64,000 nucleotides of DNA from Candidatus Chisholmbacteria bacterium RIFCSPHIGHO2_01_FULL_52_32 (GCA_001816585.1 MHCJ01000003.1:426971-490970), one strand, 5' to 3'; counted from the first letter of the stretch, positions 26,195-56,147 are shown. Translations and numbers: made by a program. Notes: generated from the letters alone by a model not told the origin.

Positions 26195-27385
26195 TTAGGA
26201 TACCCTCCCATCGGATATTGATGTAAGCATGTTTTCCACCTGATCGGTAATATGATCCCAGGTGTATCGCTTTTGAACCAGTATTCGTCCGTTGGTTCGA
26301 TGCTTTTGGTACAGCGCGGCATCCGTAAGAATGCGCTCCATTGCTTTGGCCGCCTCCTTTGGGCGGTCCGGTTCAACGAGGAGTCCGGTTTCCCCGTCAT
26401 TGATAAAATCCGTGATGCCGCCAATCGGAGTTGCGATGACCGGAAGCCCAATTGCCATTGCCTCCAAGAACGATACGCCAAAACCTTCCTTCCGTGAAAG
26501 CCTGATAAACAGATCGGCACCTGCAAGGAGTTGCGGAATTTTCCGATTTTCTACTCTCCCAAGAAGCTTGACCTTTTGCTCCAATTTGTACTTTGAGATT
26601 TGTAATTTGAGATTGTTATAGAGTGGTCCGTCCCCCGCGATGACGAGTTCCCAGTTGAGCGAGGATGGAAGCAAATAAACCGCATCAATCAGCGTGTCTA
26701 GGCCATTTCTCGGTATCAAAGCGGATGTGGTTATAATCCTTACCCTTCTCTTAACTTTTAACTTTTCACTTTTCACTTCCTCGACCTGAGCTCGGTACGA
26801 AGGTTTGAACTTTGTCGTGTCCACTCCGTTGGGAATGATAACCGACCGTCTTGCACCGAGTTTGTCCGCCTGTTCCTTCGCATACCGACTAACACAGGCA
26901 ACGACATCGGCCCGCTTGAGCGCAAAAGACACTAAAGGAGTGAGCAGGTTCGGGAGTAGATTCTTAAACGGAATCAGGCCTTTCATCACCAACTCTTCCT
27001 TGTAGTCGAGGGGATTCTGGGCCGTCATATAGAGCGGCCTTTTCAAGTGCCCGGCAAGGATGGCCGCCACGACCCCTTGAGGGAATACCTGCTTTGCCCA
27101 GACGAGATCAATGCTCTTGCCCCGGAGTACTCTCTTGATTTGGATGGGAGCAAACATGATATAGGAAAGTCCATAGAGATTGGGGATTTCCGGAAATTTG
27201 ATGGGGTGGATCGTTACGTTATGCGGAAACGTTTTTGCAATTTCGGTGGAATGACCAACAAAGACATCGAATGTGTGATCTCTCTCCGCTAACCGTTTGA
27301 TCAGCTCAACTACATGAACCTCAGCTCCACCAAGCCGTTCAGGGAGAAGATCAGCAGCAACCACAGCAATATGCATACTTTGCAT
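26195..27385 (-). CDS. Glycosyltransferase family 4
   Basis: HIAVVAADLLPERLGGAEVHV; C-terminal EGFGVSFLEAMAIGLPVIATPIGGITDFI. Confidence 0.8.
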   Translation of the reverse strand: MQSMHIAVVAADLLPERLGGAEVHVVELIKRLAERDHTFDVFVGHSTEIAKTFPHNVTIHPIKFPEIPNLYGLSYIMFAPIQIKRVLRGKSIDLVWAKQVFPQGVVAAILAGHLKRPLYMTAQNPLDYKEELVMKGLIPFKNLLPNLLTPLVSFALKRADVVACVSRYAKEQADKLGARRSVIIPNGVDTTKFKPSYRAQVEEVKSEKLKVKRRVRIITTSALIPRNGLDTLIDAVYLLPSSLNWELVIAGDGPLYNNLKLQISKYKLEQKVKLLGRVENRKIPQLLAGADLFIRLSRKEGFGVSFLEAMAIGLPVIATPIGGITDFINDGETGLLVEPDRPKEAAKAMERILTDAALYQKHRTNGRILVQKRYTWDHITDQVENMLTSISDGRVS

Positions 27386-29311: not shown

Positions 29312-30337
29312 CTATATCATGGAGCTCTGTGCGTGCGATGTTGTCATCCATTGATGCAGGTTATTTAGGCCCCGACCGATTGGTGTTGTAGGTTTCCAAC
29401 CGAAGTCCTGCCCAGCCATTGAGTAATCCGTGATGTAGACCCGTTGATCTCCCGGTCGCCACTGTGAAAATCTGATCTTTGCCACAGCCTTGCATTCCCG
29501 CTCAAGCAGAGGGAGGAGCTCGATCAAACTCACGGAGTATCGGCGGCCGCCGCCGATGTTGTACACGCGGCCGGACGTTTTTGAGATCTTGGCAATCGCC
29601 CGGACATAGCAATCAACCAGGTCACGGACATAGAGAAGATCACGGACCTGTTTCCCGTCACCGTAAATCGTGATGGTTTTTCCTCTGAGGAGCTTACGCA
29701 TGAAATGAGCTACCCAGCCCTGGTCTGCGTTGCCGAACTGGAAGTCGCCATAGATGCAGCTTTGCCGGAACACGAGCGTTCTGAGGCCATAGATACGGGC
29801 ATAATCGTGTACGTACTGGTCCCCGGCTCCTTTGCTGCAGCCGTAGGGTGAATGAAAGTCGAGCTGAAAGTCTTCCTTAATCCCCCGTCGCAAACGCCGA
29901 TCTGCAAAATCGTATCTTGTCTTTTTCTTAATAATATAAGCGTTTTCCATGCCTCCGTACACCTTATTCGTCGACGCGTATACCATAATCGGAGGATTTT
30001 TTTGCGCTCTTGCCGCTTCCAAAACATTGAGCGTTCCGAGAGCGTTTATTTCAAAATCCGTACGGGGATCCGCGACCGAGCTCGTGACGGCAACTTGAGA
30101 AGCCATATGAAATAGGAGATCGGTTCCTTCTATCTTTCTCTTTAGCGTCTCGAAGTCCCTGATATCCGCTTTGTGGAAGACTACCTTCGGATGTGTTTTT
30201 TTCAGCCATGCGAGATTCTTCTCAACACCAGGACGGGAGAGGTTATCGTACACATCCGTCTCAATGCCCTGCTTGAGATAGTAATCGGCAATGTTTGTGC
30301 CGATGAACCCAGCACCACCAGTTATCAATATCTTCAT
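29312..30337 (-). CDS. NAD-dependent SDR epimerase, CDP-paratose 2-epimerase (tyvelose epimerase)-like
   Basis: MKILITGGAGFIG; YDNLSRPGVEKNLAWL; ASTNKVYGG; LDFHSPYGCSKGAGDQY. As I recall, these are near-identical to RfbE/tyvelose-epimerase blocks. Confidence 0.7.
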   Translation of the reverse strand: MKILITGGAGFIGTNIADYYLKQGIETDVYDNLSRPGVEKNLAWLKKTHPKVVFHKADIRDFETLKRKIEGTDLLFHMASQVAVTSSVADPRTDFEINALGTLNVLEAARAQKNPPIMVYASTNKVYGGMENAYIIKKKTRYDFADRRLRRGIKEDFQLDFHSPYGCSKGAGDQYVHDYARIYGLRTLVFRQSCIYGDFQFGNADQGWVAHFMRKLLRGKTITIYGDGKQVRDLLYVRDLVDCYVRAIAKISKTSGRVYNIGGGRRYSVSLIELLPLLERECKAVAKIRFSQWRPGDQRVYITDYSMAGQDFGWKPTTPIGRGLNNLHQWMTTSHAQSSMI

Positions 30338-30375: not shown

Positions 30376-30444
30376 TTAATTAAACACTACAAACGGTTGT
30401 TGGTGCTGGGCGAAACCAGCGCCGCCGGTGATAAGAACTTTCAT
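30376..30444 (-). pseudogene. 5' remnant of a second NAD-dependent epimerase gene (22-codon ORF MKVLITGGAGFAQHQQPFVVFN*)
   Basis: A GC-rich Rossmann N-terminus MKVLITGGAGF is followed by a premature stop. It sits 38 nt upstream of, and out of frame with, the intact epimerase start. Its codon usage differs from the intact gene. Confidence 0.5.
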
Positions 30445-30484
30445 GAATTACGAATTATGAATAATGAATTATGAATTAAGAATA
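30443..30484. repeat. Heptanucleotide tandem array (ATGAATT-like) x6, immediately upstream of the epimerase-fragment ATG
   Basis: atgaatt acgaatt atgaata atgaatt atgaatt aagaata. Confidence 0.8.
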
Positions 30485-30500
30485 AGATCGATATAAGTGC

Positions 30501-31595
30501 TCAAGATTTAAAATTGCGGATTGCTTCAGTGTACACTTGTTCCGTTTCCCTGGCTATTATAGCCCAATCGAACCGCTTTGCGAGCAGTTGACCTTCTTTT
30601 TTCTTTTGATTGTAGAGCGTTTGGTTTGTGAACAGGATATTTAGCTTTTCTGCAAGATCCCGTATCTCCTGGGGCAAAAACAATAGTCCACCTTTTCCGT
30701 TCCCGGTGATTTCTTCTGTTGCCGGGATACGTGCATTGACATACGGTACGCCTGTTGCCAAGGCTTCAACCGTGGCTATCCCGAATCCTTCAACGAGGGA
30801 TGGCAGGCAGAACAAGTGAGACCTGTGCAGCGTTTTTGTGACATCCGGGTACGGTAAATTACCAAGAAGTTTTACATCCTTTGCTAGTTTGCGATTGGTA
30901 ATTTGTGATTTGAGATTTTTTCCTTCCGGACCTTCTCCGATAATGAGGCACTGAATACCGGGGATCTTTCTTTTTAGGATTGCAATCGCCTCAATAAGAT
31001 CTGCGATCCTTTTATACGGAAGGAGCCTTGCGATCGTACAAACGGTTGGCCTTAGGAACTTCTTGACGTTCAACGCTTTGAGCTTCCCGTATTCCACCCC
31101 TCCGTAGATGACGGTGATTCTTTCCGGAGGGATCCCCAGGGCAATCAGCTTTTTTTGTGTAACCTGGCTCATCGCAATCCAATGGTTCCAGGGTAACTTC
31201 AGCCCGGTAACTTCCATTACCCTACCGGCAATGGCGACAGGGAGCGGAAAATAATCCGTCCAATATTTTCCTAAGACGTCGGGGACCCAAGCGACCGCCG
31301 GCAAACCGAGGCGCTTTGCCAAAAGGAATGCCGGGAAATAGGTTGTGACATTTGAGGCTTCGATCAGATCCGGCCTTTTTTTTGGCTTTATTAAGATAAT
31401 GCGGATCAAAGAGGCAAGACGGGGGAACATGGATAGTGTGGTTGCCGCGATCGAGCCCCTGTTCAGGCTGACCACTTCCACATTGTGTTTTTCCGATAAG
31501 TACTTCGCGACAAAATAATTTCGGGCTTGTACACCACCAACAATCGTTGGCTGGGCTCCGTCGGGATAGAATTCATTAACAAGGAGAATATTCAA
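30501..31595 (-). CDS. Glycosyltransferase family 4
   Basis: C-terminal VEGFGIATVEALATGVPYVNARIPATEEI. TTG start (MNILLVNEFYPDG). Confidence 0.75.
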   Translation of the reverse strand: MNILLVNEFYPDGAQPTIVGGVQARNYFVAKYLSEKHNVEVVSLNRGSIAATTLSMFPRLASLIRIILIKPKKRPDLIEASNVTTYFPAFLLAKRLGLPAVAWVPDVLGKYWTDYFPLPVAIAGRVMEVTGLKLPWNHWIAMSQVTQKKLIALGIPPERITVIYGGVEYGKLKALNVKKFLRPTVCTIARLLPYKRIADLIEAIAILKRKIPGIQCLIIGEGPEGKNLKSQITNRKLAKDVKLLGNLPYPDVTKTLHRSHLFCLPSLVEGFGIATVEALATGVPYVNARIPATEEITGNGKGGLLFLPQEIRDLAEKLNILFTNQTLYNQKKKEGQLLAKRFDWAIIARETEQVYTEAIRNFKS

Positions 31596-31604
31596 AATAG
31601 CAGA

Positions 31605-31639
31605 ATGTTCAATGTTAAATGTGCGATGTTTAATGTTTG
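31605..31639. repeat. Heptanucleotide tandem array (ATGTTNN) x5 in the 5' region of the GT4 gene 30501..31595
   Basis: atgttca atgttaa atgtgcg atgttta atgtttg. Confidence 0.75.
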
Positions 31640-31656
31640 AGCGTAATCGTTCAGAT

Positions 31657-32013
31657 TTATTTCTTTTTTTTTGATCGTTTTTCTCCTTCGAGCGCGATTT
31701 TTCTCACCAACTCCGTGATCTGGTGCCGCACATTCTCCAAAATTACGTTGGTACGGTACACAAGGTAAAACAACAACACGAGCGAAGCATAGATGACGAC
31801 ATCTGCTCCTCTGCCTATTCCGAGAACGCGTGCGATACTGGTCGTGAACTGTGGATTTAAGCTTCCAAGTGCTGCCAATCCCCAAATCAATGACCAAAAG
31901 AGAAACGTCCCGATATTGATTGTTCTCTCACGAAAACGCAGCCAGACTCTCGAGAAAGCAAAGAGAATAAAGATGAGCAAAAATACCTGGACTGGAATCA
32001 GTAATATTTGCAT
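31657..32013 (-). CDS. DUF2304-like small 4-TM membrane protein (GT2-associated)
   Basis: 118 aa with four hydrophobic helices and a Lys-rich tail, directly downstream of a GtrB-like GT2. This is the typical DUF2304 context. Confidence 0.45.
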   Translation of the reverse strand: MQILLIPVQVFLLIFILFAFSRVWLRFRERTINIGTFLFWSLIWGLAALGSLNPQFTTSIARVLGIGRGADVVIYASLVLLFYLVYRTNVILENVRHQITELVRKIALEGEKRSKKKK

Positions 32014-32026
32014 ACTTTATGACTCA

Positions 32027-32710
32027 CTAGCGGGCAAGCTTCAGGAGTAGTCTACCTAAAATACCGAAGGCGTTCAAATTGGACTGCCCCTTCTTCCGTG
32101 AATAAGAAGTGTAGATGACATGGATCGGAACCTCCGTAAGCTGCAAACTAAGGCGATTTATCTCCGAGAAAAATTCCGATGAGGCTTCCATTTCCTGTGT
32201 CTTGAGAGAAATTTGACGAATCGCTGGTTTTGAGAATGCCCGAAATCCTGACTGCGAATCCGATGTACTAACCGAAAAGAGGAGCTTTGTTATGACGTTA
32301 CCAAACCAAAGGATTATCCGGCGGTCGAACGGGATTTGTTGCATTCCTTTTAACGTCCGGGAGCCGATCACCACGTCCGCATCTCCCTTTCGAATCGGCT
32401 CGATCACCCGTCTGATGTCTCCCGGGTCATGCTGACCGTCCGCGTCAAAGGTCACCGCGATGTCTGCATTTACCAGTTTTGCGTAGGTAAGTCCTGTCCC
32501 CAATGCTCCGCCCAACCCACGATTAATGGGGTGGGAGAGAATCTTTGCGCCAGCAGTCATTGCCTCCTTCGCTGTGGCGTCTACCGAGCCGTCATCGACC
32601 ACAACGATTTCGACCTCGCCTAATGATGCAATCTCTTTCTTCAATGCAACAAGTACCTTTCGAATGACCGGCGCCTCGTTGAATGCGGGGACGATAATCA
32701 CTAGCTTCAT
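32027..32710 (-). CDS. Polyprenyl-phosphate sugar synthase, GT2 (GtrB/DPM1-like)
   Basis: 227 aa. IIVPAFNEAPVI...VVVDDGSVDAT...VTFDADGQHDP...VVIGSR. Confidence 0.75.
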   Translation of the reverse strand: MKLVIIVPAFNEAPVIRKVLVALKKEIASLGEVEIVVVDDGSVDATAKEAMTAGAKILSHPINRGLGGALGTGLTYAKLVNADIAVTFDADGQHDPGDIRRVIEPIRKGDADVVIGSRTLKGMQQIPFDRRIILWFGNVITKLLFSVSTSDSQSGFRAFSKPAIRQISLKTQEMEASSEFFSEINRLSLQLTEVPIHVIYTSYSRKKGQSNLNAFGILGRLLLKLAR

Positions 32711-33630
32711 CGTCCTCTCTTAAAAAATTCCGCTGTTTTTTCTAACCCATTTCGGAGTTCTGTTCTTGGTTGCCAGCCGAACTCCTTCAGCGCCTTTTTG
32801 CTATCCAGGCTGCTTCGTCGTTGTTCCCCCTTTTTTACCGGCCCGTAGAGGGGCTTTACGGTTGGGGCGAGTTGTTTTCGCAGTTCGTCGAAAATGGTGG
32901 TAACATCCGTTTCTTTTCCGGTGCCGATGTTGTTGATCCCTTTTGCCTTTTGGGAGAGTGCCTTTGCATTCGCTTCTACGACATCTTCCACAAAGACAAA
33001 GTCCCGTGTTTGTTTGCCGTCACCACTTATTACCGGCTGTTCCCCGCTGAGGAGCCTCCCGGAAAAGATGGCAATCACCCCCGCCTCCCCCTTCGGATTT
33101 TGCCGCGGTCCATAGACATTTCCGTAGCGAAGGCTGACAAACGGTATGCCATGGACCTCTTGATAGTAGTGGAGATAGTGCTCGCAGGTTAACTTCGCAA
33201 CGCCGTAGGGTGAGATCGGCCATGCCGGATAATTTTCCGGAGTCGGAATTATGCTTGCATCTCCGTAGATCGCACCACCGGTTGAAGCGAAGATCACTTT
33301 TTTGACCGATTTTACCTGTCGGGCTCCCTCCATCAGGTTCAACAATCCAAGAATATTGATTTCAGCGTCCCAAAGAGGTTCTTCAACCGATCTGCGAAGA
33401 TCGATTTGTGCGGCGTGGTGGTTGATGATCTCGGGTTTTTCCGCAACGACGAGGTTGAAGGCATCTTTGGACCGAATATCGAGTTTGAGAAATTTTACTT
33501 TACGGTTTAGATTTGCTTCCGATCCGGTCGAGAGGTCATCGATGACAAGAACTTGATGGCCATCAGTAATGTAGCGATCAACGATGTGCGAACCGATGAA
33601 TCCGGCACCGCCGGTAACTAAAATTTTCAT
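32707..33630 (-). CDS. NAD-dependent SDR nucleotide-sugar epimerase (GalE/WbpP-like)
   Basis: MKILVTGGAGFIGSH (ATG at 33630), catalytic YGVAKLTCE, and NVYGPRQNPKGEAGVIAIF. Confidence 0.75.
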   Translation of the reverse strand: MKILVTGGAGFIGSHIVDRYITDGHQVLVIDDLSTGSEANLNRKVKFLKLDIRSKDAFNLVVAEKPEIINHHAAQIDLRRSVEEPLWDAEINILGLLNLMEGARQVKSVKKVIFASTGGAIYGDASIIPTPENYPAWPISPYGVAKLTCEHYLHYYQEVHGIPFVSLRYGNVYGPRQNPKGEAGVIAIFSGRLLSGEQPVISGDGKQTRDFVFVEDVVEANAKALSQKAKGINNIGTGKETDVTTIFDELRKQLAPTVKPLYGPVKKGEQRRSSLDSKKALKEFGWQPRTELRNGLEKTAEFFKRGR

Positions 33631-33682
33631 GAATGATGAACTAAAAAATTTAAGAACCAACTATTTTTTCGTCTGTAGCTGA

Positions 33683-34567
33683 TCATCTAGCTCCCTTTAT
33701 CACACCGACCCCGCTTCCGATGATGAACATACCTCCAATTAAAGTATACAGAGTTACTGGTTCCTTAAAAAAGATAGCAGCAAGGATGATTGCTCCGATT
33801 GGTTCTCCATAACTTAAGATTGATGCGCTTGTCGCCGGGATCTGTCTTATACCTTGGAAGAAAAGAAGGAACGAAATACCAAGCACTAGTATTCCCCATA
33901 TAGACAACCAGAACCAGTTTGTCGGAGAAATACCTGCTTGAATTGAATTCATAGCAAATGGCAGAAATAAAACCAAAGGAACAGCATTTTTATAGACGAC
34001 TGCGCTTAACGGATCAGCTTTCGTTTGTGTAACTCTTTTTTCTAGAACCGTGTGAAACGCAAAGAAAATTGCTGAGAGGGATCCGTAGATAAGAGCACGA
34101 TCAATTGATCTGCCGATATCGGGTAAAATTAAAACGAGAAGACCGACGAAACCAAGAATAGCTAAGACGAAATTCTTGATGGTAATCTTTTCTTTCAGAA
34201 TGAGTGGCCCAAAAATGAGTACAACGAATATTGGGGCTAAATAATGGGTAAGAACGGCGTTCGCCACTGTTCCGCTTTTGATTGCAGTAAAGAATAGGCC
34301 GTTATTTACCGCGATTCCCAAACCTACACCCAGCATTAACCTTAAGGTTTTTGTTGAATATCTCAAGAGATCAGATAGTTTGTTTTTCAAAGCAAGGCTT
34401 GAGAGGAGAAAAACAATACCCCAAAATGCTCCGATTGCGTAAAGTGCAAATGCTGGTATAGAAATTAACTTTACTAGAATTCCTGTGCTGACGCCCCAGA
34501 TTGAAACAGCCCCAAGCACGAATAGATATCCTGAGTGTATAAATTTACTACCTTTTTCTTTAGCCAT
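33683..34567 (-). CDS. EamA/DMT-superfamily transporter
   Basis: 294 aa with 10 predicted TM helices in two repeated halves. Confidence 0.6.
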   Translation of the reverse strand: MAKEKGSKFIHSGYLFVLGAVSIWGVSTGILVKLISIPAFALYAIGAFWGIVFLLSSLALKNKLSDLLRYSTKTLRLMLGVGLGIAVNNGLFFTAIKSGTVANAVLTHYLAPIFVVLIFGPLILKEKITIKNFVLAILGFVGLLVLILPDIGRSIDRALIYGSLSAIFFAFHTVLEKRVTQTKADPLSAVVYKNAVPLVLFLPFAMNSIQAGISPTNWFWLSIWGILVLGISFLLFFQGIRQIPATSASILSYGEPIGAIILAAIFFKEPVTLYTLIGGMFIIGSGVGVIKGAR

Positions 34568-34573
34568 TTGTTC

Positions 34574-35722
34574 CTACGCTACCCAATATCCGCGGACAAA
34601 GAGTGCGGTGTTTACCGCCAGCAGTATAGCACTTGCAACCCACCAAACTCGCTGAAATATCGGACTCTTAATCTTTCCTAAAACAATGAAGCAAGGGAAG
34701 AGCACAAGGACGTACCGGGGCATACTTGAGAAGGTGCCCGTCAAGGTCGGGAGAAGATAGGAGAGAATGCCAAAGATCGCATAGGAAAGGCGGGTTCTTC
34801 TAAAGGCAATTATGGAAAGAACCAGGAAAAGGATTCCGCTTGCCGCCTCGAGGAATACCGTATAGTAAACAAGCGTCTTTGGGTCAACCGTTGCAATCAT
34901 TTTGACGTACCGCCAAAATACCTGATACAGAAGGATGAGTTTATCGGCGCTCCTCCCTGCACCAAAGACTGGTTGGGCGTGGAGAAAGAGAAGCGGGTCC
35001 TGAAAGGACTTGTTCAGGTAATACATGTATCCCACAAGACCCGATATAGAGAGGAAAATGGGTAATACGGCAAGAAACAACTCCGAAAACGTGAAGACGG
35101 TCTTCTTGCCTCTTTGAACATACCATTCTATGAGAAGGGCTGGTAAGAGAAAGACACCAAAGATTCGTGTCGCCGATGCCAGACCCCCCAGAATCCCGGC
35201 AATCCACCAGCTTTTCTTCCTGGCGGCAAAGAGGGAGCCAAAGACCATCATCAGGAAGAGGCTTTCGGTATAGACGGAAACAAAAGAGTATGCGGTCGGG
35301 AAGAGAAGAAGAAAGATTAGAGTCCTTTTTGCCGTTGTTTGCCCCCAATCTAGACGGATGAGTTTGTAGAACAAAATGAGTGTAATCACAAGTGCAGCAT
35401 GGGAAACTAGGAGTCCTGAAGCAAGGTAATTCCCGACGAAGGTCTGTGTATATCGGATCGCCAGCGGATAGAGAGGGAAGAAGGCTTGGGTGAATTGGGC
35501 GCTGTACCCATGCATGGCTATGGTCAGGTAATGGACTCCATCGAAGTTCCCCCAACTCCAAAACAGCGGATGGCCGTTGGGTTCAAGGAGCGTTTCCCAA
35601 TACGGGAAGCTTGGCTTAAAGGGGAGCGATGAAATCGCATATGCTGCTATAGCCAAGAGCGCAACCCGCCAGAGAACGAGTACACCGAGAATCCACTTAA
35701 GTTTGCCTGGTTCTTTTCTCAT
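34574..35722 (-). CDS. GT-C membrane glycosyltransferase, PIG-V / Mannosyl_trans2-like
   Basis: WSWGNFDGVHYLTIAMHGY loop motif (the W..wDg.hYl.IA..GY of PIG-V-type mannosyltransferases) and multiple TM helices. Confidence 0.55.
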   Translation of the reverse strand: MRKEPGKLKWILGVLVLWRVALLAIAAYAISSLPFKPSFPYWETLLEPNGHPLFWSWGNFDGVHYLTIAMHGYSAQFTQAFFPLYPLAIRYTQTFVGNYLASGLLVSHAALVITLILFYKLIRLDWGQTTAKRTLIFLLLFPTAYSFVSVYTESLFLMMVFGSLFAARKKSWWIAGILGGLASATRIFGVFLLPALLIEWYVQRGKKTVFTFSELFLAVLPIFLSISGLVGYMYYLNKSFQDPLLFLHAQPVFGAGRSADKLILLYQVFWRYVKMIATVDPKTLVYYTVFLEAASGILFLVLSIIAFRRTRLSYAIFGILSYLLPTLTGTFSSMPRYVLVLFPCFIVLGKIKSPIFQRVWWVASAILLAVNTALFVRGYWVA

Positions 35723-35731
35723 TTCTTTCCT

Positions 35732-36790
35732 CTACCCGGCCAAAACTTGGGTATACACATTGATTGTTTCCCGCGCCGTTTTTTCCCAAGAGAACTTGTG
35801 ATTTTGTCGGTTCCCTTTTTCTATGAGGTGTCCTCTCTCCTTCTCTCCCAGCTTCATGGCTTTGATTATTCCACTTGCAATACTTTCGGTACTCAGTGGA
35901 TCCACGAATATCGCTGCTTCCCCGGCTACTTCCGGTATACTTGCCACTTTGCCAGCCACGACCGGGGTTTTGCACGCGAACGCTTCAAGTATCGGAAGCC
36001 CAAATCCTTCATAGAGGGAAGGTTGGATGTAGGCTTTGGCTTGGCTGTAAATCGCAGCGAGAGTTTCCGGACGGTCTAAGGGAACACTCGAACGGATGTG
36101 CACTCTGCCGCTCAACTTACTTTTTTCAATCGCCGATAGGATTTGTTTTACTTGCGGAAGAGCTTTATCGGCGAACACCCGCCCTACCAAAACCAGATGA
36201 ATATCTGGCATTTCCCGGCGTACCTTTTGCATCGCCGCAATGAGCTTCGTAAGATTTTTATTCGGGTTTACGTCACCGACGTAGAGGAGAAATTTTTTCG
36301 GGAGTGCGTATTTCTTTTTTATCCGTGCGATTTTTTCTTTTGATTGCGGCATAAACGCACCGTCTGCCGCTAAGTGGATGACGTGAATCTTTTCAGGCTC
36401 GATCCCCAAATATTTTGTGATATCTTTTTTGGAATTATAGGAATCCGCAATAATTGCCTCTACACTTCGAATAGCTAAGCGTTGAAGAAAGAACCTTGCC
36501 TTTCCACGCACCCCCGCAGGAAAATCCTTGGGAAAAATCAGGGGAATCACATCGTGGATGGTGACGACCGTTTTTGTCTTCCTTTTCAGAGGAAGTGTAT
36601 GGAAAAAGAGATCGAAGTAGGGGTAGTGGGTAAGATCGGCATTGCGTACAAGGTTTGCTTTTGTTGTCACGATGTACTGATTTTTCTTGTCTATCTTATG
36701 GAGCGCTTCGATAAGCCTTCGGGTATACATCCCAATCCCGCGCGTTTTATGGCCGGTCTTTAACGGAGAGATATCGATCACGACTTTCAT
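35732..36790 (-). CDS. Glycosyltransferase family 4
   Basis: MKVVIDISPLKTGHKTRGIG; C-terminal YEGFGLPILEAFACKTPVVAGKVASIPEV. Confidence 0.8.
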   Translation of the reverse strand: MKVVIDISPLKTGHKTRGIGMYTRRLIEALHKIDKKNQYIVTTKANLVRNADLTHYPYFDLFFHTLPLKRKTKTVVTIHDVIPLIFPKDFPAGVRGKARFFLQRLAIRSVEAIIADSYNSKKDITKYLGIEPEKIHVIHLAADGAFMPQSKEKIARIKKKYALPKKFLLYVGDVNPNKNLTKLIAAMQKVRREMPDIHLVLVGRVFADKALPQVKQILSAIEKSKLSGRVHIRSSVPLDRPETLAAIYSQAKAYIQPSLYEGFGLPILEAFACKTPVVAGKVASIPEVAGEAAIFVDPLSTESIASGIIKAMKLGEKERGHLIEKGNRQNHKFSWEKTARETINVYTQVLAG

Positions 36791-36796
36791 AAGAGA

Positions 36797-36826
36797 ATGA
36801 TTAATGATTAATGGTTAATGATTAAT
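36797..36826. repeat. Heptanucleotide tandem array (ATGATTA) x4, spanning the stop of GT2 36815..37615 and the 5' UTR of GT4 35732..36790
   Basis: atgatta atgatta atggtta atgatta. On the coding strand it reads (TAATCAT)n, giving TAA in all three frames, followed by TCTCTT-ATG. Confidence 0.8.
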
Positions 36827-37615
36827 TTGTCTTGCGTTTTCTTGCGGATGATTGGTCGTATACTTTGCCTCCCAATACTTCATGTAGGCGATCTGCCAAT
36901 GTAAACCGGAGAACAGTGCAAAAATAAATCCGGGAAATCCATCCAGGAAACCTTTGTGCCGAATGTAAATCCGTACAAATGTCACAAGAGGTCTTATGAA
37001 GAAATACTCAAGGAAGTTCCCGCTATTGAGCGCGAGCTTTTTCCTATTCAGCTCCTCGGCTGTGAGCGAGGTATAACGATTGGCGTTGGTCAGGTACCGG
37101 CTGAAGGTTGGGGCTGTGAAGTGTCTCAGATGTCCATTCAATTGCTCCACCCTGCCTTTAACCTCCATCTGCTCATGGACGCTTCTTTGCGGGAGGTAGG
37201 CCTTTCCTTTTCTGAACAACCGGATAACCGGATCGGGGTACTGACCACCTTTATGAAGCCAGGTTCCCAAAAAAAAGTTCTTTCTTTTTATAGCAAAAGC
37301 GGAAAATGGACTCCCTTTTTTGATAACTGAAACAATTTCTTTCGCAAGTTCTTCATCGACTTGTTCGTCCGCATCGAGCTGGAGAATCCAGTCGGATGAG
37401 GCGGCATCGATTGCCATCTGCTTGTTCGTGTGAAACATCGGACGGTTCACCGTTTTTATCACACGTGCTCCGTACCGGCGGGCGATTTGGCGGGTTTTAT
37501 CTTCCGATGAACCATCGACGACAACGATTTCATCGGCAAATGATTTGACGCTTTCAAGACACCTTGGGAGGTTCCCTTCCTCGTTATAGGTCGCGAGGGC
37601 AACGGATAGTTTCAT
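36815..37615 (-). CDS. Glycosyltransferase family 2
   Basis: LSVALATYNEEGNLPRCLESV...IVVVDGSSEDKT...LQLDADE. Confidence 0.8.
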   Translation of the reverse strand: MKLSVALATYNEEGNLPRCLESVKSFADEIVVVDGSSEDKTRQIARRYGARVIKTVNRPMFHTNKQMAIDAASSDWILQLDADEQVDEELAKEIVSVIKKGSPFSAFAIKRKNFFLGTWLHKGGQYPDPVIRLFRKGKAYLPQRSVHEQMEVKGRVEQLNGHLRHFTAPTFSRYLTNANRYTSLTAEELNRKKLALNSGNFLEYFFIRPLVTFVRIYIRHKGFLDGFPGFIFALFSGLHWQIAYMKYWEAKYTTNHPQENARQINH

Positions 37616-48165: not shown

Positions 48166-49688
48166 ATGTTAAATACCGTATCGCCATTTACCATTTTTAT
48201 CTGTTCGTAACCGGTCTTTTCGTCCGGCTTCTGCCAGAATGGCGCGATAATTAGGGCTCGTTTCCCAGTTTTGGCAATCTCCCAAGCGTATTGGAAGTAC
48301 TTCACTTTCCCCATCTCTTTTGCGGGGTTCGAGAGTTTGTGATAATCCGAAGGCTCAACGGGAAGGTAAAACGCAACGTAAAGTGGTGGTAGTGCATCGC
48401 TCACAAATATTTCGTCGTATGCGTCCCATCGCTTTGCAATTATCTCCACCGTTTCTTTTATTCCGTCTTGCCAATCGAGGGCTGTCTCCCGCGGATAATG
48501 GATGTAGTACTGATGGATGTACAACAGGATGTTGTAACCAACTGCCAGAGCGAGTACACCCAGTACCAAAATTCTGGTTGCCTCCCGTTTTTGACGGTTG
48601 ATTACCTTCAGTACCCCTACGGCTCCGATTGCCGTTATGATCTCCCACGCCGGAAGCATGTTCAAAGTACGGATCGCATGGGGATTGATGTTTGAGAGGG
48701 AAACCGATACGGGAGCAAGGAGAAGCCAGGCAAATACCATGTTTCTTCCGTTCCCTTTTCCTTTGATCAGGGTCCGGAGGCCGAGAAGAACCAGCGGCAG
48801 TTCAAATACATAGAGCATTCCAAGCTTTCTTACACTGTGCCTTCCATTTTGATCACCTCTGAAAAAGAGAAATGTGGTATCGAAATTTGCGAGATAATTT
48901 TCAAACACTTTGGGGAAGAGCTTTTCTTTTCCGATGATGCTTTCGGAATACGCACGGATGACCGCTTCTCCCGAAATGATCGACGGGACAAAGGGAAGAC
49001 TTAAGATCACACCCGTTACGACAGCGGTGGCAAGATCCCTTTTTGCTTTCATTACATTCTTCCTGCAAATCCAGACCAAAGCCAGGAGTATAAGGGGTGC
49101 AAACAAGCGTGTGCTGATATACGTAGCTGCGGAGAGTAAGAACAAGATGACAGAAACGGTTAACCACATCCCATGTTTACGAAGTGATACAAGAAATGCG
49201 TACCACCCTGCAACAAGGAAGAACAAGGCGAGGTTCGCCTCAAAGCCTCCCCGAGAAAATTGGAGATGCCATGGCGAAATCGCAAGAAGCAGTGCAGCTA
49301 CTGCCGCAATGGCTGATGGCTGATGGCTGATGGCTGATGGCTTTTTTTCAAACAGTTCAACGACGAGGAAGTACATCAGAAGAACCGTGAGGGTGCCGGC
49401 AAGGGCGGAGGGGAAACGGACGGCAAAATCCGATCTGCCAAGGAGCTTTACACTGATGGCTGCTATGTAAATATAGCCCGGATATTTGTAGTCTCCAAAA
49501 GCCCGAAAACTTACCGGTAAACTTTTTCCATATTGGTCCTTTCCCGTTTGCGCAATGGAGTATGCGTTATACCCGATCGAAATCTCATCCCAGTAGAGCC
49601 CGGGTGGCATTACGGCAAGATTGTAAAACCTTAAGACTCCGGCCAGGATCGTGATTAAGCTTAAGAGGAGGATCGTTTTCGCTTTCAT
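48153..49688 (-). CDS. GT-C glycosyltransferase, ArnT/PMT-like (GT39-type), paralog G
   Basis: LYWDEISIGYNAYSIA. The loop insert KKPSAISHQPSAISHQPSAI is encoded by (GCTGATG)4. Confidence 0.65.
   Translation of the reverse strand: MKAKTILLLSLITILAGVLRFYNLAVMPPGLYWDEISIGYNAYSIAQTGKDQYGKSLPVSFRAFGDYKYPGYIYIAAISVKLLGRSDFAVRFPSALAGTLTVLLMYFLVVELFEKKPSAISHQPSAIAAVAALLLAISPWHLQFSRGGFEANLALFFLVAGWYAFLVSLRKHGMWLTVSVILFLLSAATYISTRLFAPLILLALVWICRKNVMKAKRDLATAVVTGVILSLPFVPSIISGEAVIRAYSESIIGKEKLFPKVFENYLANFDTTFLFFRGDQNGRHSVRKLGMLYVFELPLVLLGLRTLIKGKGNGRNMVFAWLLLAPVSVSLSNINPHAIRTLNMLPAWEIITAIGAVGVLKVINRQKREATRILVLGVLALAVGYNILLYIHQYYIHYPRETALDWQDGIKETVEIIAKRWDAYDEIFVSDALPPLYVAFYLPVEPSDYHKLSNPAKEMGKVKYFQYAWEIAKTGKRALIIAPFWQKPDEKTGYEQIKMVNGDTVFNIWEI
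49307..49343 (-). repeat. Intragenic heptanucleotide tandem repeat (GCTGATG)4 plus a degenerate flank, next to a T7/A7 tract
   Basis: Read directly: gcaatg gctgatg gctgatg gctgatg gctgatg gct ttttttt. It encodes SAISHQP repeats in paralog G. Confidence 0.85.
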
Positions 49689-51352
49689 CTTTTCATGATT
49701 GAAACTGTCGGTTCACCGTTTGGAAGTCTAATGACCTTCAGCGCTTCATCCCTTTGTGATTTGGGCGTCTGTGCATAGAGATCAACAAGCAGCACCGGAG
49801 TTTCCGATGGACCTTCGCTGTAATTGATAGGTTGAAATAGAAACTTCCCGAATTTATTTTTGGTTTCCAGAAATCCTCCGGAAACCGTACCTCCGTCGAT
49901 ATTTATGTACGTCCACGGATCGTATTTTGTGTAGAACGCGAAGAAGTTCTGCGGTTGTCGGAGGTTGGTGGAAACGATCACTTTCGAGTTTTCGTCTTTA
50001 TGAAGATCAGCGTACTCCGCCGCCTCTTTATATCCATACTGCCAACTTTCCGCAAACTCAAGCGGCCCATGGACATAGTACTGATGGAGATAGTGATATA
50101 CGCTTCCGGCAACGAGTACGGCCGAAAGCATGAAGGTGACTATGCGCAAACCCTTCCTCATTTTCTTAACTGCGGCAAGAGCGGTAAGGACGCCGACTGC
50201 CGAGAAAATTTGCAGTGTCGGCAACGCTACGGTCATCCTTACTGAGCTTGGGATATCCCACGTCAGTGCCGAGGCAACCGGCGACAAAAGAAACCAACCG
50301 AGGAGAATTCCGAATGGCCGGCGGTCCTTGAGATGTGCCATTTTGCAGAGTCCGAGAAGAATAAGCGGCAATTCACCAAGGTAGAGGAGACCGACGTTCG
50401 GCGCATGATTGTACGGCATCCCTTTCGTTCCTAAGAATAAAAGGTCTGGTTGAAAGTGCTTTAGATAGCCGTCGCTAACCGTCAGAAATCCGGCGAAGTA
50501 TCGGTTGTGCAGGAACTTCACCCCCAGCCAGTCTTGTCTTTGAGCATCAACTACTCTCCTTCCTGTTTCTTTCTCAACAAGTCCCGGGTGCTCGAAGACG
50601 CTGGTTCCCTTAAATCGCATGAGCCCTGCTTGGGAAAATAGAATTGGGGAAAGCGGAAGGCTGAGGATTAAGAAAGCGAATGCCGCAATGCAGGCATCTC
50701 GCCTTTTTAGCCAAATGGTTTTCCCGTAAATTCCGGCAAGGGCGACCAAAAAGAGCGGAATAAAAAGCCTCGAAGTTTGATAGGTGTACAAAGAGAGGCT
50801 GAAGCTTGCCGCCGTGCCTATCCACCAACGGCCGTTTCCTCGAATACCTTTGAGAAATGTCCAGACGCCTAAAACGGTTAGGAATACCGCGATGTTGGTT
50901 TCAAATGCAACACGGGAGACCTGAAGGTGCCATGGCGAAATTGCGAGGAGAAGTGCGGCGATTTCGCCAACTGAAAACTGAAAACTGAAAACTGACAACT
51001 TTAGCCTCGGGAAAAGTTCCCTCACAAGAAAATAGGTCAAGAGGACCGTGAGAGTGCCGGCAAGGGCGGAGGGAAAGCGGACGGCAAATGGATTGAGGCC
51101 GGAGGCTGCAATTGAGGGAACCGAGAGGTAAATATACAGGGGCGGTTTGTAATCGTCGTGGGAGCGAAAGACGAGCGGCAAGCGCTTCCCATACTCATCC
51201 ATTCCCGTTTTGAGAATTGAGTAGGCGTTATAGCCGATCGCGACTTCATCGAGGTTCAGGCTTGGAGGATTTTTTCCGAGTTGATAGAATCGCAGCACCG
51301 CGGCGAGCGTGACTATAGCTGCTAGGGTAAATCCTGTTCGCATTTCCCTCAC
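49685..51352 (-). CDS. GT-C glycosyltransferase, ArnT/PMT-like (GT39-type), paralog H
   Basis: LNLDEVAIGYNAYSIL. The loop insert LKLSVFSFQFSV is encoded by (AACTGAA)3-4. Confidence 0.65.
   Translation of the reverse strand: MREMRTGFTLAAIVTLAAVLRFYQLGKNPPSLNLDEVAIGYNAYSILKTGMDEYGKRLPLVFRSHDDYKPPLYIYLSVPSIAASGLNPFAVRFPSALAGTLTVLLTYFLVRELFPRLKLSVFSFQFSVGEIAALLLAISPWHLQVSRVAFETNIAVFLTVLGVWTFLKGIRGNGRWWIGTAASFSLSLYTYQTSRLFIPLFLVALAGIYGKTIWLKRRDACIAAFAFLILSLPLSPILFSQAGLMRFKGTSVFEHPGLVEKETGRRVVDAQRQDWLGVKFLHNRYFAGFLTVSDGYLKHFQPDLLFLGTKGMPYNHAPNVGLLYLGELPLILLGLCKMAHLKDRRPFGILLGWFLLSPVASALTWDIPSSVRMTVALPTLQIFSAVGVLTALAAVKKMRKGLRIVTFMLSAVLVAGSVYHYLHQYYVHGPLEFAESWQYGYKEAAEYADLHKDENSKVIVSTNLRQPQNFFAFYTKYDPWTYINIDGGTVSGGFLETKNKFGKFLFQPINYSEGPSETPVLLVDLYAQTPKSQRDEALKVIRLPNGEPTVSIMKR
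50969..50996 (-). repeat. Intragenic heptanucleotide tandem repeat (AACTGAA)3 plus a degenerate unit
   Basis: aactgaa aactgaa aactgaa aactgac. It encodes SVFSFQFSV in paralog H. Confidence 0.8.
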
Positions 51353-53917: not shown

Positions 53918-56147
53918 GCCGCCCAGATGGAACCATTGTACCACGCAAGCTGTAGAGGACCTGATGTATTTCAATCCCGGTCCCGTCGAGGGTCGCGGTC
54001 CACCCGGGATAGTAGGTGTCTGAGAGAACGAGCATCCCACCGGTTTGGCTGTCCACAAGGATCCCAACCTCATTTTCACGGTATTCCATGATCGAGGCGG
54101 ATTGGTTCACGTCCTCCTTTTTCATTGAAAATGCCTGTTCAAGGGACTGTCTTTCGGAGTTCGGCACAACATAGTTTGGGATCAGGAATGCGCGCGGGAA
54201 CGCTTGGTTATTTTTGTAGACCCTGGTTTCTCCTTCCTGAAATACCTTCTCAAGCTTGGGGTGCAAAAGATCCGTCAGACTGACGACATACTTTACGTTC
54301 AGAAGATCAACGATCGGCGATGCATAGTTGTCCGGCCGGATAATGCGATGGAAAGGGGTCGGTTCAAGGGTGGGCTCTCCTTTCTGCGAAGACGCTATTA
54401 ACTGGCCGAAGCGCCGGATATAGATCGGATCGTAACCCTCGAGCGTTTGGAATCGGTAGGGTATTGAAAAGTTCGGCGGGAAGATCCTGGCGTCCGTGGT
54501 GATGTAACGCCAGGGACTTTTGTCCTGAGCAAGAAAACGGACTGTTTCTGTTTGCGGGTAGAGGTAATCCTTATCCGAGAAAGGTGTGAATTTCCAAGAA
54601 AAGCGGAGAAGATCGGCAGAAGTGAGAATGAAAAGAACAATGAATAATGAATTATGAATTATGGTTTTGTTCTTTACCCTGAGCTTCACTAGATGCAAGG
54701 CGGCCATCAGGGTTATGCCGGCTGCGACAATAAGCATAGTCGGCAGAATGAGATTGCGCTGGGCCACTTTGAGGTTTTCGGCTGCCATATCTATTCCTGT
54801 CTTTCCGAACGTAAATACCCACAAGCCTCCGATTGTAGCTGCCGTTATCGACAATGCGATGAGCAGATGACGATTCAATCCCTTTCCTGCTCTTAAGTCT
54901 TTGAAGAATCTGTCGAGCCCAAAGGCGGCAAGGAGCGCCAAGCACAAATCAACAATCATCATCAACCGCGAAGGCTGTGCCGTTGAGATCAACGGAAGGT
55001 TCAATTGAAAAGGAATCCTTGAAAGCGGGTTTGATAGAGCAAAGATCAATGACAGAACCAATGCACAGATAAAGAATTTTTCTTGAAATGATTTCTTTCC
55101 TGAGGATGTGAATAATGCGGTCAGCGCGAATGCCAAAGGTATCATCCCAACATACCCGATGAACTCCGTGTAATTAAAAGCGCCCCAATAATTGAGTGTT
55201 GCAGGATTACCAAAAAAATCGGGGGCAACAAACTGCACTAGATTCTGCCATGGTAAAAACCAGTCCTGTCTCATCAACACGTCCCCCTGATCGATTTCCC
55301 GCGCAGAGTATCGCAGAAGTTTTGCGGTCGGAACCCACTGAACCGCAGTCAATGCCCCCACCGCGATCACGACCAGAGAAAGTTTGAGGATGGTTGTCTT
55401 TCTTCCGGACAGCCACAGCCTAACTCCTGCGTAGGCAAGAATCACGACAATAGCGTAAAAGGAAGTCTGCAAGAATCCGGCAAAAAGGATGCTTACCAGT
55501 GCAAAAGCAAGCGTTAGGTACCAAATCAGCCTTTCTTGCTTTACGATCCGTTCAATCCCAAGGAGTGCAAGCGGTACCCAGACGAGCGTATGAAGCGTCG
55601 TGTTCCACTCGAGCCAAGCGACTGAAAAGCCGCTCAATGCGAGCGAAAGGGAGGCAATGGAAGCGGCTTTCTTGGAAACACCAATGTCGGTTAGGAAGGC
55701 AAACAGAAAAAGAGCAAGCAGAAGAGGTTGCAGGATGACTTCGATGCTCCAAGCGGTTGGAAATGGCAAGAGAAAAAAGAGGATATTGAGCGGATAAAAA
55801 AGGGCGGTTTGGATGTTTGCCGCAAGCGGCGTGCCGGCATGGGTATAGGGATTCCACCCCGGGTATTGTCCGCTTTTGAGGAGGTCTATCGCGAGCTCAC
55901 GCCAGGGATACTGCTGTCTAATGGCATCGGTGATGAGGAAATTCTTGAAGGGAACTCCTGCCGTGAGCCCTTTCCACACCACGTCTCGAAAGGGATGATA
56001 CATTCCAACGATGGTATCCGCAGGAATGGGAAGCTTTCCTTTCATCCAGGCTGGTGAAAAAAATATGAATATCGGAAGTAGTAACAGAAAAAGGTAGATC
56101 CCTTTGTTTCGTGTGCGCCTTGCCACTGCTCTCCTGATTTTACTCAA
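53886..56147 (-). CDS. YfhO-family-like polytopic membrane glycosyltransferase (GT-C) with C-terminal extracytoplasmic domain
   Basis: 753 aa. ITDAIRQQYPWRE...GQYPGWNPYTHAGTPLAANIQTALFYPLN resembles the YfhO D..QQY-P...P.WNP..G.P N-terminal loop signature as I recall it. About 13 TM helices. Confidence 0.5.
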   Translation of the reverse strand: MSKIRRAVARRTRNKGIYLFLLLLPIFIFFSPAWMKGKLPIPADTIVGMYHPFRDVVWKGLTAGVPFKNFLITDAIRQQYPWRELAIDLLKSGQYPGWNPYTHAGTPLAANIQTALFYPLNILFFLLPFPTAWSIEVILQPLLLALFLFAFLTDIGVSKKAASIASLSLALSGFSVAWLEWNTTLHTLVWVPLALLGIERIVKQERLIWYLTLAFALVSILFAGFLQTSFYAIVVILAYAGVRLWLSGRKTTILKLSLVVIAVGALTAVQWVPTAKLLRYSAREIDQGDVLMRQDWFLPWQNLVQFVAPDFFGNPATLNYWGAFNYTEFIGYVGMIPLAFALTALFTSSGKKSFQEKFFICALVLSLIFALSNPLSRIPFQLNLPLISTAQPSRLMMIVDLCLALLAAFGLDRFFKDLRAGKGLNRHLLIALSITAATIGGLWVFTFGKTGIDMAAENLKVAQRNLILPTMLIVAAGITLMAALHLVKLRVKNKTIIHNSLFIVLFILTSADLLRFSWKFTPFSDKDYLYPQTETVRFLAQDKSPWRYITTDARIFPPNFSIPYRFQTLEGYDPIYIRRFGQLIASSQKGEPTLEPTPFHRIIRPDNYASPIVDLLNVKYVVSLTDLLHPKLEKVFQEGETRVYKNNQAFPRAFLIPNYVVPNSERQSLEQAFSMKKEDVNQSASIMEYRENEVGILVDSQTGGMLVLSDTYYPGWTATLDGTGIEIHQVLYSLRGTMVPSGRHEILYRYSEL
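54640..54667. repeat. Heptanucleotide array (ATGAATA/ATGAATT) x3-4 inside the YfhO-like CDS
   Basis: atgaata atgaatt atgaatt atggttt. It shares a 21-23 nt identity with the 30457..30477 array. Confidence 0.7.

Follow-up and report, generated by a model that had tools for sequence, protein, structure and literature searches.

The stretch of DNA analysed here is a segment of 64,000 nucleotides from Candidatus Chisholmbacteria bacterium RIFCSPHIGHO2_01_FULL_52_32 (GCA_001816585.1 MHCJ01000003.1:426971-490970). This whole stretch is called the window, and positions are counted from its first letter. The window is a glycan-biosynthesis island, and its host is one of the Patescibacteria, a group also called the Candidate Phyla Radiation (CPR). 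A single long minus-strand operon runs from about 22 kb to 63 kb. It encodes GT4 and GT2 glycosyltransferases, two epimerases, a DUF2304 protein, an EamA transporter, a YfhO-like protein and about eight GT-C/PMT_2 paralogues. Pfam confirms the gene identities given in an initial annotation of this DNA (GT4, GT2, DUF2304, epimerase and GT-C/PMT_2). The same annotation described three arrays of 7-nt tandem units lying before minus-strand gene starts; all three are present, within 1-2 nt of the coordinates it gave, and they are the subject of this report. The arrays, as delimited by Tandem Repeats Finder (TRF), and the features next to them, which include a mini open reading frame (ORF), are listed below.

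29312..30337, minus strand: NAD-dependent epimerase, 341 aa (Pfam PF01370, E=5e-50), intact, downstream of array 1 and the remnant.
30376..30444, minus strand: putative 22-codon remnant of an epimerase 5' end, MKVLITGGAGFAQHQQPFVVFN and a stop (sequence reading), between array 1 and the epimerase start at 30337.
30443..30485, minus strand: array 1, about six imperfect heptamers (TRF 30443-30483, period 7, 5.9 copies, 85% matches).
30501..31595, minus strand: GT4 glycosyltransferase, 364 aa, TTG start (Pfam PF00534, E=1e-35), with array 2 upstream and array 1 downstream.
31592..31612, minus strand: mini-ORF TTG AAC ATT CTG CTA TTT TGA, MNILLF and a stop (sequence reading), after array 2.
31604..31637, minus strand: array 2, about five degenerate heptamers (TRF period 7, 4.9 copies, 74% matches).
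35732..36790, minus strand: second GT4 glycosyltransferase, 352 aa (Pfam PF00534, E=2e-30), downstream of array 3.
36796..36826, minus strand: array 3, four heptamers (TRF period 7, 4.4 copies, 91% matches), length-polymorphic.
36815..37615, minus strand: GT2 glycosyltransferase, 266 aa (Pfam PF00535, E=2e-22), whose reading frame ends (Q I N H stop) within the first units of array 3.

On the coding strand array 1 reads TATTCTT AATTCAT AATTCAT TATTCAT AATTCGT AATTCAT-G. It begins 16 nt past the GT4 stop and, as had been described, runs into the ATG of the epimerase fragment, the last unit giving the A and T of the ATG at 30444-30442. TRF also reads this array as two copies of period 21 (30443-30485). 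Array 2 lies within the 61-nt spacer between the DUF2304 and GT4 genes. It reads AAACATT AAACATC GCACATT TAACATT GAACATT and is followed by CTGCTATT and the TTG start at 31595, with 8 nt between the end of the array and the TTG. Array 3 reads AATCATT AACCATT AATCATT AATCATT, followed by CTCTT and the ATG at 36790 (a 5-nt gap), and the TAA stop of the GT2 gene (36817-36815) spans the junction of its units 1 and 2. The distances from array end to start codon are 0, 8 and 5 nt for arrays 1, 2 and 3, all on the mRNA strand. All three arrays are imperfect, with a longest perfect run of two units in each.

The frequency of 7-nt repeats against a shuffled expectation, a check proposed in the initial annotation, was measured on the 64-kb window. 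An autocorrelation score was computed for periods 4-15 with a threshold of at least 12, and 100 local dinucleotide-preserving shuffles served as the control. Six period-7 arrays reach the threshold, other periods give 0-1 except period 14 (a multiple of 7), and the shuffles give a mean of 0.00 arrays for every period. Array 2 falls below a score of 12 and was called by TRF only. TRF identifies about nine period-7 loci in the window, all within the operon. Three of these fall in intergenic DNA, which accounts for only 3.7% of the window and for 1.6% of the operon. Short, AT-rich arrays, one of them (array 2) matched at 74% only, are what chance low-complexity sequence or an assembly artefact might look like. 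This explanation is refuted by the shuffles, which yield no arrays at the threshold where six are observed, and by the presence of the same sequence in 12-14 independent assemblies (ENA, JGI, Logan), and we give it practically no credence.

The GT4 protein encoded between arrays 1 and 2 is found on 21 contigs. Retrieval by the exact protein gave ten loci, which match the window at 99.9-100% identity, with the arrays unchanged wherever they are reached, and the arrays are likewise unchanged in four more loci found via three near-identical GT4 variants. Array 2 is identical in 14 loci, and array 1 in all loci that reach that far. These loci were retrieved via an exact or near-exact GT4 protein and represent essentially one haplotype. 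The invariance of arrays 1 and 2 is therefore weak evidence for stability, and we dropped it as a strong argument against slippage.

Variants of array 3 were sought in loci fetched through variant neighbours of the array, all of them consensus assemblies. Three alleles were obtained from strains that are at least 99.2% identical and belong to the same sample series. On the coding strand they read as follows.

Window, also L001-L004 and L014: 4 units, AATCATT AACCATT AATCATT AATCATT, stop-to-start spacer 24 nt.
L142 (ERZ4903125): 3 units, AATCATT AACCATT AAACATA, spacer 17 nt.
L019 (ERZ27254791): 2 units, AACCATT AAACATA, spacer 10 nt.

The alleles of L142 and L019 are exactly one unit apart. 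L019 differs from the window by 8 substitutions over 2.6 kb, seven of which fall into the 63 nt that surround array 3 (L019 1035-1097, corresponding to window 36764-36840) and include three amino-acid changes in the tail of the GT2 protein. As the substitutions are clustered, the alleles are either old or imported by recombination; the cluster itself represents either a recombination tract or a mutational hot spot. In another locus (L143 1562-1637) the array contains 10 Ns, and the next 65 nt or so do not resemble the window there, which may be due to strain heterogeneity or to a scaffolding error at the repeat.

A change of whole units is also seen inside a gene. The perfect array at 49309-49342, in a GT-C paralogue, is shorter by exactly 21 nt, which is three units or 7 aa (SHQPSAI), in a 98%-identical variant (P0020, SRR3989344). 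With the array 3 alleles, this indel shows that unit-step length change happens in the species, at one of the three arrays flagged at the outset. The initial annotation had reasoned that a change in copy number would alter the spacing between the upstream gene and the start codon, and array 3, with natural spacers of 24, 17 and 10 nt, bears this out. Its expectation that copy number varies is borne out at array 3 (4, 3 or 2 units) but not at arrays 1 and 2, which are identical in every assembly retrieved from what is essentially a single haplotype.

These alleles bear on a further suggestion made there, that the arrays are expression rheostats. Slippage-prone arrays would be maintained by selection as a contingency device, with the number of units setting the spacing and so diversifying glycosyltransferase levels and surface glycans. 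The co-occurrence of strains with two, three and four units (spacers of 10, 17 and 24 nt) is what such a device would produce; the scaffold that breaks with Ns inside array 3, the three-unit change in the perfect GT-C array and the location of all arrays in one surface-glycan operon rich in GT-C paralogues point the same way. There is also a proven precedent, in the 7-bp repeats that tune expression of H. influenzae hmw1A (PMC8262952). The hmw1A constructs tested, however, carry 13-24 perfect units, whereas the arrays here have 4-6 imperfect units with perfect runs of two. Arrays 1 and 2, both degenerate, do not differ among 12-14 assemblies that come from several projects, and array 1 precedes a dead remnant and not a gene. 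The array 3 alleles also differ by clustered substitutions, which indicates old alleles or recombination imports and not fresh slippage. Predicted accessibility of the start sites is also unaffected by the arrays, as described below. Length variation at array 3 is thus the part of the suggestion that stands, and from the sequences compared here a selected rheostat appears an unlikely explanation.

The closest GT4 homologues outside the species share 46-61% identity, yet they lie in syntenic loci. In four of these relatives (L015, L020, L021 and L022; GT4 identity 56-61%) period-7 or period-14 arrays are present at the same two junctions, before GT4 and before the epimerase, with differing unit sequences and copy numbers (about 2-7 units). 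The search of orthologous junctions in related genomes that the initial annotation had recommended was therefore successful. The arrays found are these.

L021, upstream of the GT4 start: ATT AAACATT AAACATT AAACATT AAATA-TTG AAC ATT.
L021, before the epimerase ATG: TCATTAG TCATCAG TCATCAA ACATTAA ATATTAA ACATTAG.
L015, upstream of GT4: AATTCTC AATCCTC AATTCTC AAACATC AATCATT AATCATT AGTCATT.
L015, before the epimerase ATG: TAATTCTTATATCT, two copies.
L022: AAACATT-type arrays at both junctions.
L020: a 14-mer in two copies before the epimerase, and AATCATY in six copies (L020 1-42) directly before the DUF2304 start.

The DUF2304 junction carries an array in L020 (AATCATC/AATCATT, six copies) and none in the window, so units of the array 3 type are found at different junctions in different lineages. 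TRF identifies at least 12 period-7 arrays in 12.7 kb of L015, L020, L021 and L022, and none in 23.7 kb of the more distant L016 and L017, which makes the heptamer habit a lineage trait. Genes at the corresponding junctions of L016 and L017 lie close together or overlap (as ATGA in L016 and by 1 nt in L017). As relatives without arrays have such tight junctions, the spacers consist largely of the arrays themselves. The presence of an array outlasts its sequence across these relatives. A comparison of the GT4 protein with GTDB genomes gave a single 31%-identical match in Elusimicrobia, which is uninformative.

The arrays run into the native ends of the genes that they adjoin. The GT2 gene ends CAA ATT AAY CAT TAA (Q-I-N-H-stop) in every array 3 allele, and unit 1 of array 3 therefore comprises the C-terminal codons and stop of GT2. 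All GT4 orthologues begin TTG/GTG AAC ATT, which equals the unit GAACATT. The L021 array merges straight into this start, and the relatives continue CTT CTC. Each array was probably seeded by sequence at its own junction, array 3 by the GT2 stop region (AAT CAT TAA) and array 2 by the GT4 start region ((T)TG AAC ATT).

Two of the junctions also contain what look like duplication scars. The first 11 codons of the epimerase remnant match the N-termini of the relatives' epimerases, and the relatives have no such remnant. In the relatives the array adjoins the true epimerase ATG, while in the window the live start, 108 nt beyond, lacks one, which makes array 1 a relic. The window epimerase shares 66-80% identity with those that occupy this position in L015, L020, L021 and L022. 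This rules out gene replacement behind array 1 and indicates a local scar and not a gene swap; the remnant is either a duplicate of the 5' end or a recombination scar. The mini-ORF after array 2 repeats 17 nt of the GT4 5' end out of frame and has a TGA that overlaps the true TTG start. It could be a coupling upstream ORF or a plain duplication scar.

Heptamer arrays are also present within genes of the operon.

26584..26614, minus strand: period-7/14 array AAATCTC AAATTAC ... in a GT4 paralogue, within the helix that follows the GDGP motif (TRF).
26751-26778: array AAGTGAA/AAGTTAA, four copies, near the preceding array.
49309..49342, minus strand: perfect array AGCCATC, 4.9 copies, in a GT-C paralogue, encoding KPSAISHQPSAI (TRF, 100% matches).
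50969..51000, minus strand: array AGTTTTC, 4.6 copies, in the adjacent GT-C paralogue, in the corresponding place of the loop (TRF).
54627..54663, minus strand: array in the YfhO-like gene (TRF), with a 21-nt stretch in common with array 1.

The junction-array units contain stop codons in all six frames, and AGCCATC, AGTTTTC and AAATCTC are stop-free. This accounts for the intergenic position of the former and the intragenic position of the latter. Four GT-C paralogues (49309-49342, 50969-51000, 41400-41435 and 47409-47444) have short arrays at the same protein position, at about aa 111-125. These loop arrays are flanked by ELF.. and AA(V/L)AA, and their units are unrelated (AGCCATC x4.9, AGTTTTC x4.6 and, in two genes, the 8-nt unit CAATAAAA x4.5). 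The loop looks hypervariable by slippage. A length difference of 8 aa in another GT-C variant (P0087) was considered as a change in an 8-nt array and rejected, as it is a C-terminal truncation. Heptamer periodicity of the AAATCTC AAATTAC ... kind also occurs inside GT4 genes, in the helix after the G(D/E)GP motif, both in the window paralogue (26584-26614) and in three orthologues (TRF: L015 755-791, L021 770-800 and L022 770-798). The window GT4 has a degenerate heptamer periodicity at 30887-30921 that is below the TRF threshold. The stretch common to array 1 (30457-30477) and the YfhO-like array (54640-54660) is an exact match of 21 nt, AATTCATAATTCATTATTCAT, on the same strand, and the imperfect third unit is part of it in both. 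Such a match suggests that one site was copied to the other and that slippage did not act independently at each.

The arrays fit the definition of heptanucleotide long simple-sequence repeats (SSRs): the units are in tandem, period 7 is over-represented, and strains differ by whole units, across the window and 12.7 kb of relatives. A common slippage-type mechanism with a preference for 7-nt units, as the initial annotation envisaged, fits well, since period 7 is the sole enriched period, array 3 and the GT-C array vary, and the relatives' junctions carry arrays. We therefore consider, with moderate confidence, that the three arrays are long SSRs (bacterial microsatellites) made by slippage at AT-rich junctions and tolerated between genes. 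Strand slippage in a lineage biased to 7-nt units would both make and remodel the arrays at AT-rich gene junctions. The junction units would survive between genes, their stop codons barring survival inside an ORF. Turnover would take place on a strain-to-species timescale and not as rapid switching, with array 3 currently polymorphic and arrays 1 and 2 decayed and seemingly fixed, array 1 as a relic before a dead gene fragment. The consequence would be that tight or overlapping, translationally coupled junctions become G-poor spacers of 10-160 nt, in which the gain or loss of a unit shifts the distance from stop to start.

Regulatory roles at the DNA level were also considered. The initial annotation had mentioned protein-binding iterons, and sites of this kind, or operators, or promoters embedded in the arrays, could take the form of AT-rich direct repeats in intergenic DNA. 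Three heptamers make 21 bp, which is two helical turns, and TRF gives a period-21 reading of array 1. A spacing of 7 bp, however, is off the helical repeat and would turn each site to another face of the helix than the one before. At 7 nt, the units are neither identical sequences of about 17-22 bp nor helically phased, as iterons would be, and the neighbouring genes are glycosyltransferases. The units differ between arrays, drift in sequence and copy number between relatives, and form the same kind of array inside coding regions. A scan of 26-38 kb for sigma-70 promoters and terminators gave no sigma-70-like -35/-10 pair and no terminator in any array, and the regional matches were fewer than in shuffled sequence (9 versus 14.4). 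The iteron suggestion is therefore unsupported, and DNA-level sites of any of these kinds are very improbable. Rfam at the gathering threshold gave no family in the whole window, and the window contains no transfer RNA or transfer-messenger RNA.

Several observations weigh against the arrays being merely tolerated microsatellites. Four or five lineages with no more than 56-61% identity between their GT4 proteins have kept arrays at the same two junctions, which looks non-neutral, and the same units (AAACATT and AATCATT) recur, even at unlinked junctions, which exceeds simple neutral decay. The array alleles are known from consensus assemblies, in which slippage is not directly seen. Pre-start heptamer sets number three in the 64-kb window and seven in the relatives' fragments. 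On the mRNA strand the ten junction arrays contain 10 G in 355 nt where 74 are expected, which hints at a strand-specific constraint. The 55 ORF starts are not preceded by an excess of Shine-Dalgarno (SD) motifs (GGAG, 7 observed versus 7.9 expected), and a non-SD initiation signal must therefore exist in the organism. In a metagenome scan for (AAACATT)3, which gave at least 119 contigs with GC contents of 16-60%, an ATG-led ORF of at least 100 aa begins within 10 nt downstream of 18 of the 95 listed arrays in the AAACATT orientation, compared with 7 in the reverse orientation; the 95 are the arrays with usable flanks among the metagenome matches listed.

A rival reading is an RNA-level translation element, in which G-poor AAWCAUU leader repeats would form a landing or standby site, or a platform for a single-strand RNA-binding protein (S1- or Csp-like) that promotes or tunes initiation, in an organism that does not use SD pairing. 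The G depletion of the mRNA strand and the lack of SD enrichment speak for it, and the arrays end 0-8 nt before starts and in a single orientation. The motif AACATT is found before 4 of the 55 ORF starts, with 5 matches compared with 0.34 expected. Related units occur at orthologous and non-orthologous junctions in relatives, (AAACATT)n lies beside ATG in many unrelated metagenomic contigs, and a close analogue exists in the TAACTGA repeats of Beggiatoaceae (PMC4679880). The accessibility of the starts, calculated with ViennaRNA as the unpaired probability of positions -18..+12, is nevertheless the same with the array (native, 0.42-0.46), without it (0.44-0.52) and with random operon sequence in its place (0.43-0.49), and the idea of an unstructured landing pad was rejected on this ground. 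Most genes of the operon start without an array, the orthologous junctions of L016 and L017 do without one, and array 1 is no longer beside a functional start. The units differ between arrays, and about 70% of the listed metagenomic AAACATT arrays are away from starts. Going by sequence patterns, a translation element could account for the arrays but is improbable, and we continue to favour long SSRs.

Further observations were made on these motifs. A single AACATT lies directly before three further starts (upstream of 28590, 29270 and 48165). Arrays of (AAACATT)n are widespread in unrelated metagenomic contigs (L023-L141) and often abut an ATG, for example in L112 (646-672), L080 and L138. 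In L112 the ORF downstream of the array begins MARYTGP and looks like ribosomal protein S4. A few of the metagenomic matches resemble eukaryotic telomere-type repeats, and in L091, L100 and L102 AAACATT is mixed with AAACCCT repeats of this type. The resemblance of the array 1 unit UUCAUAA to the anticodon loop of initiator tRNA was dropped as a coincidence, because the other arrays do not fit.

Two features elsewhere in the operon may reflect rearrangement. The EamA transporter gene (window 33683-34567) lies between a GT-C-like gene and the epimerase, and has no counterpart in the syntenic loci L016 and L017; a lineage-specific insertion is the probable explanation. In the GT-C region two ORFs (43364-44890 and 44790-46160) overlap by about 100 nt and are of atypical length. 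Frameshift or rearrangement of a paralogue may have produced this pair (43364-46160).

Heptamers are the most abundant class of long SSRs of 5-11 nt in prokaryotes and are attributed there to polymerase slippage (Mrazek 2007, as summarised in PMC4679880). In Xanthomonas, heptamer repeats occur between corresponding genes of related species and vary in length and sequence (PMC4692102). The arrays described here share with such repeats, in so far as these two papers set them out, the tandem 7-nt units in a few up to some tens of copies, the excess of period 7, the intergenic bias, the placement at junctions of the same genes and a proposed origin by slippage. The Xanthomonas GGGAATC and Nostoc GGGGAYT units are G-rich quadruplex formers (PMC4692102), whereas the units here are AT-rich and G-poor (AATTCAT, AAACATT and AATCATT). 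A further difference is that these arrays lie at operon-internal junctions, 0-8 nt from starts, and in a CPR/Patescibacteria host. The cyanobacterial short tandemly repeated repetitive (STRR) heptamers of Calothrix and Nostoc, as cited in PMC4692102, are likewise tandem and abundant intergenically in particular lineages. The STRR heptamers and the arrays described here differ in unit sequence and in phylum. Typically, STRR arrays are longer, and a genome contains far more of them.

The closest analogue in position is the TAACTGA direct repeats, which marine Beggiatoaceae, some Cyanobacteria and Bacteroidetes carry in 2-6 copies just upstream of starts that lack SD motifs and for which a translational role has been proposed (MacGregor 2015, PMC4679880). 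Both systems have 2-6 heptamers in one orientation a few nucleotides before starts that lack SD motifs. The TAACTGA system uses one heptamer genome-wide, whereas here there are at least three related but distinct units, none of them TAACTGA. The unit closest to it, AAACTGA, is read from the intragenic array at 50969-51000 on its non-coding strand.

The (ATCTTTC)n repeats in the H. influenzae hmw1A and hmw2A promoters are an experimentally proven graded rheostat, located between two mapped promoters and changing during infection (PMC8262952; PMC12721329). They resemble the present arrays in having 7-bp tandem units upstream of a surface-structure gene and a copy number that differs between isolates. 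They differ in being located in a promoter and in having 13-24 perfect units in the tested constructs, compared with the 2-6 imperfect units found here at operon-internal junctions. A contingency tract is long, perfect and frequently mutated; the perfect runs here are of two units, and arrays 1 and 2 are invariant in 12-14 assemblies.

A heptamer excess and heptamer repeats before starts have already been described in other bacteria, and the arrays described here add a further example. No report of such repeats in the CPR/Patescibacteria was found in the literature searched. The CPR/Patescibacteria are thought to live attached to host cells, and surface glycans probably mediate the contact. 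The heptamer repeats might be evolvability devices, with AAWCAUU arrays at junctions replacing SD coupling and retuning glycosyltransferase stoichiometry, and perfect arrays in the GT-C loop giving length or ON/OFF variation; together they would make up a contingency system by which an ultra-small episymbiont attaches to hosts or evades phages. We offer this only as a speculative possibility.

This Chisholmbacteria population carries length alleles that differ in steps of 7 nt, one set at a glycosyltransferase junction and one inside a GT-C paralogue. If the repeats have no effect on expression, the locus still illustrates clearly the bias of bacterial genomes towards 7-nt slippage, which is poorly understood. 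If they do affect expression, this would be the second natural case, after the Beggiatoaceae, of heptamers where a ribosome-binding site is expected, and microsatellite-based surface variation would extend from pathogens to uncultured groundwater symbionts.

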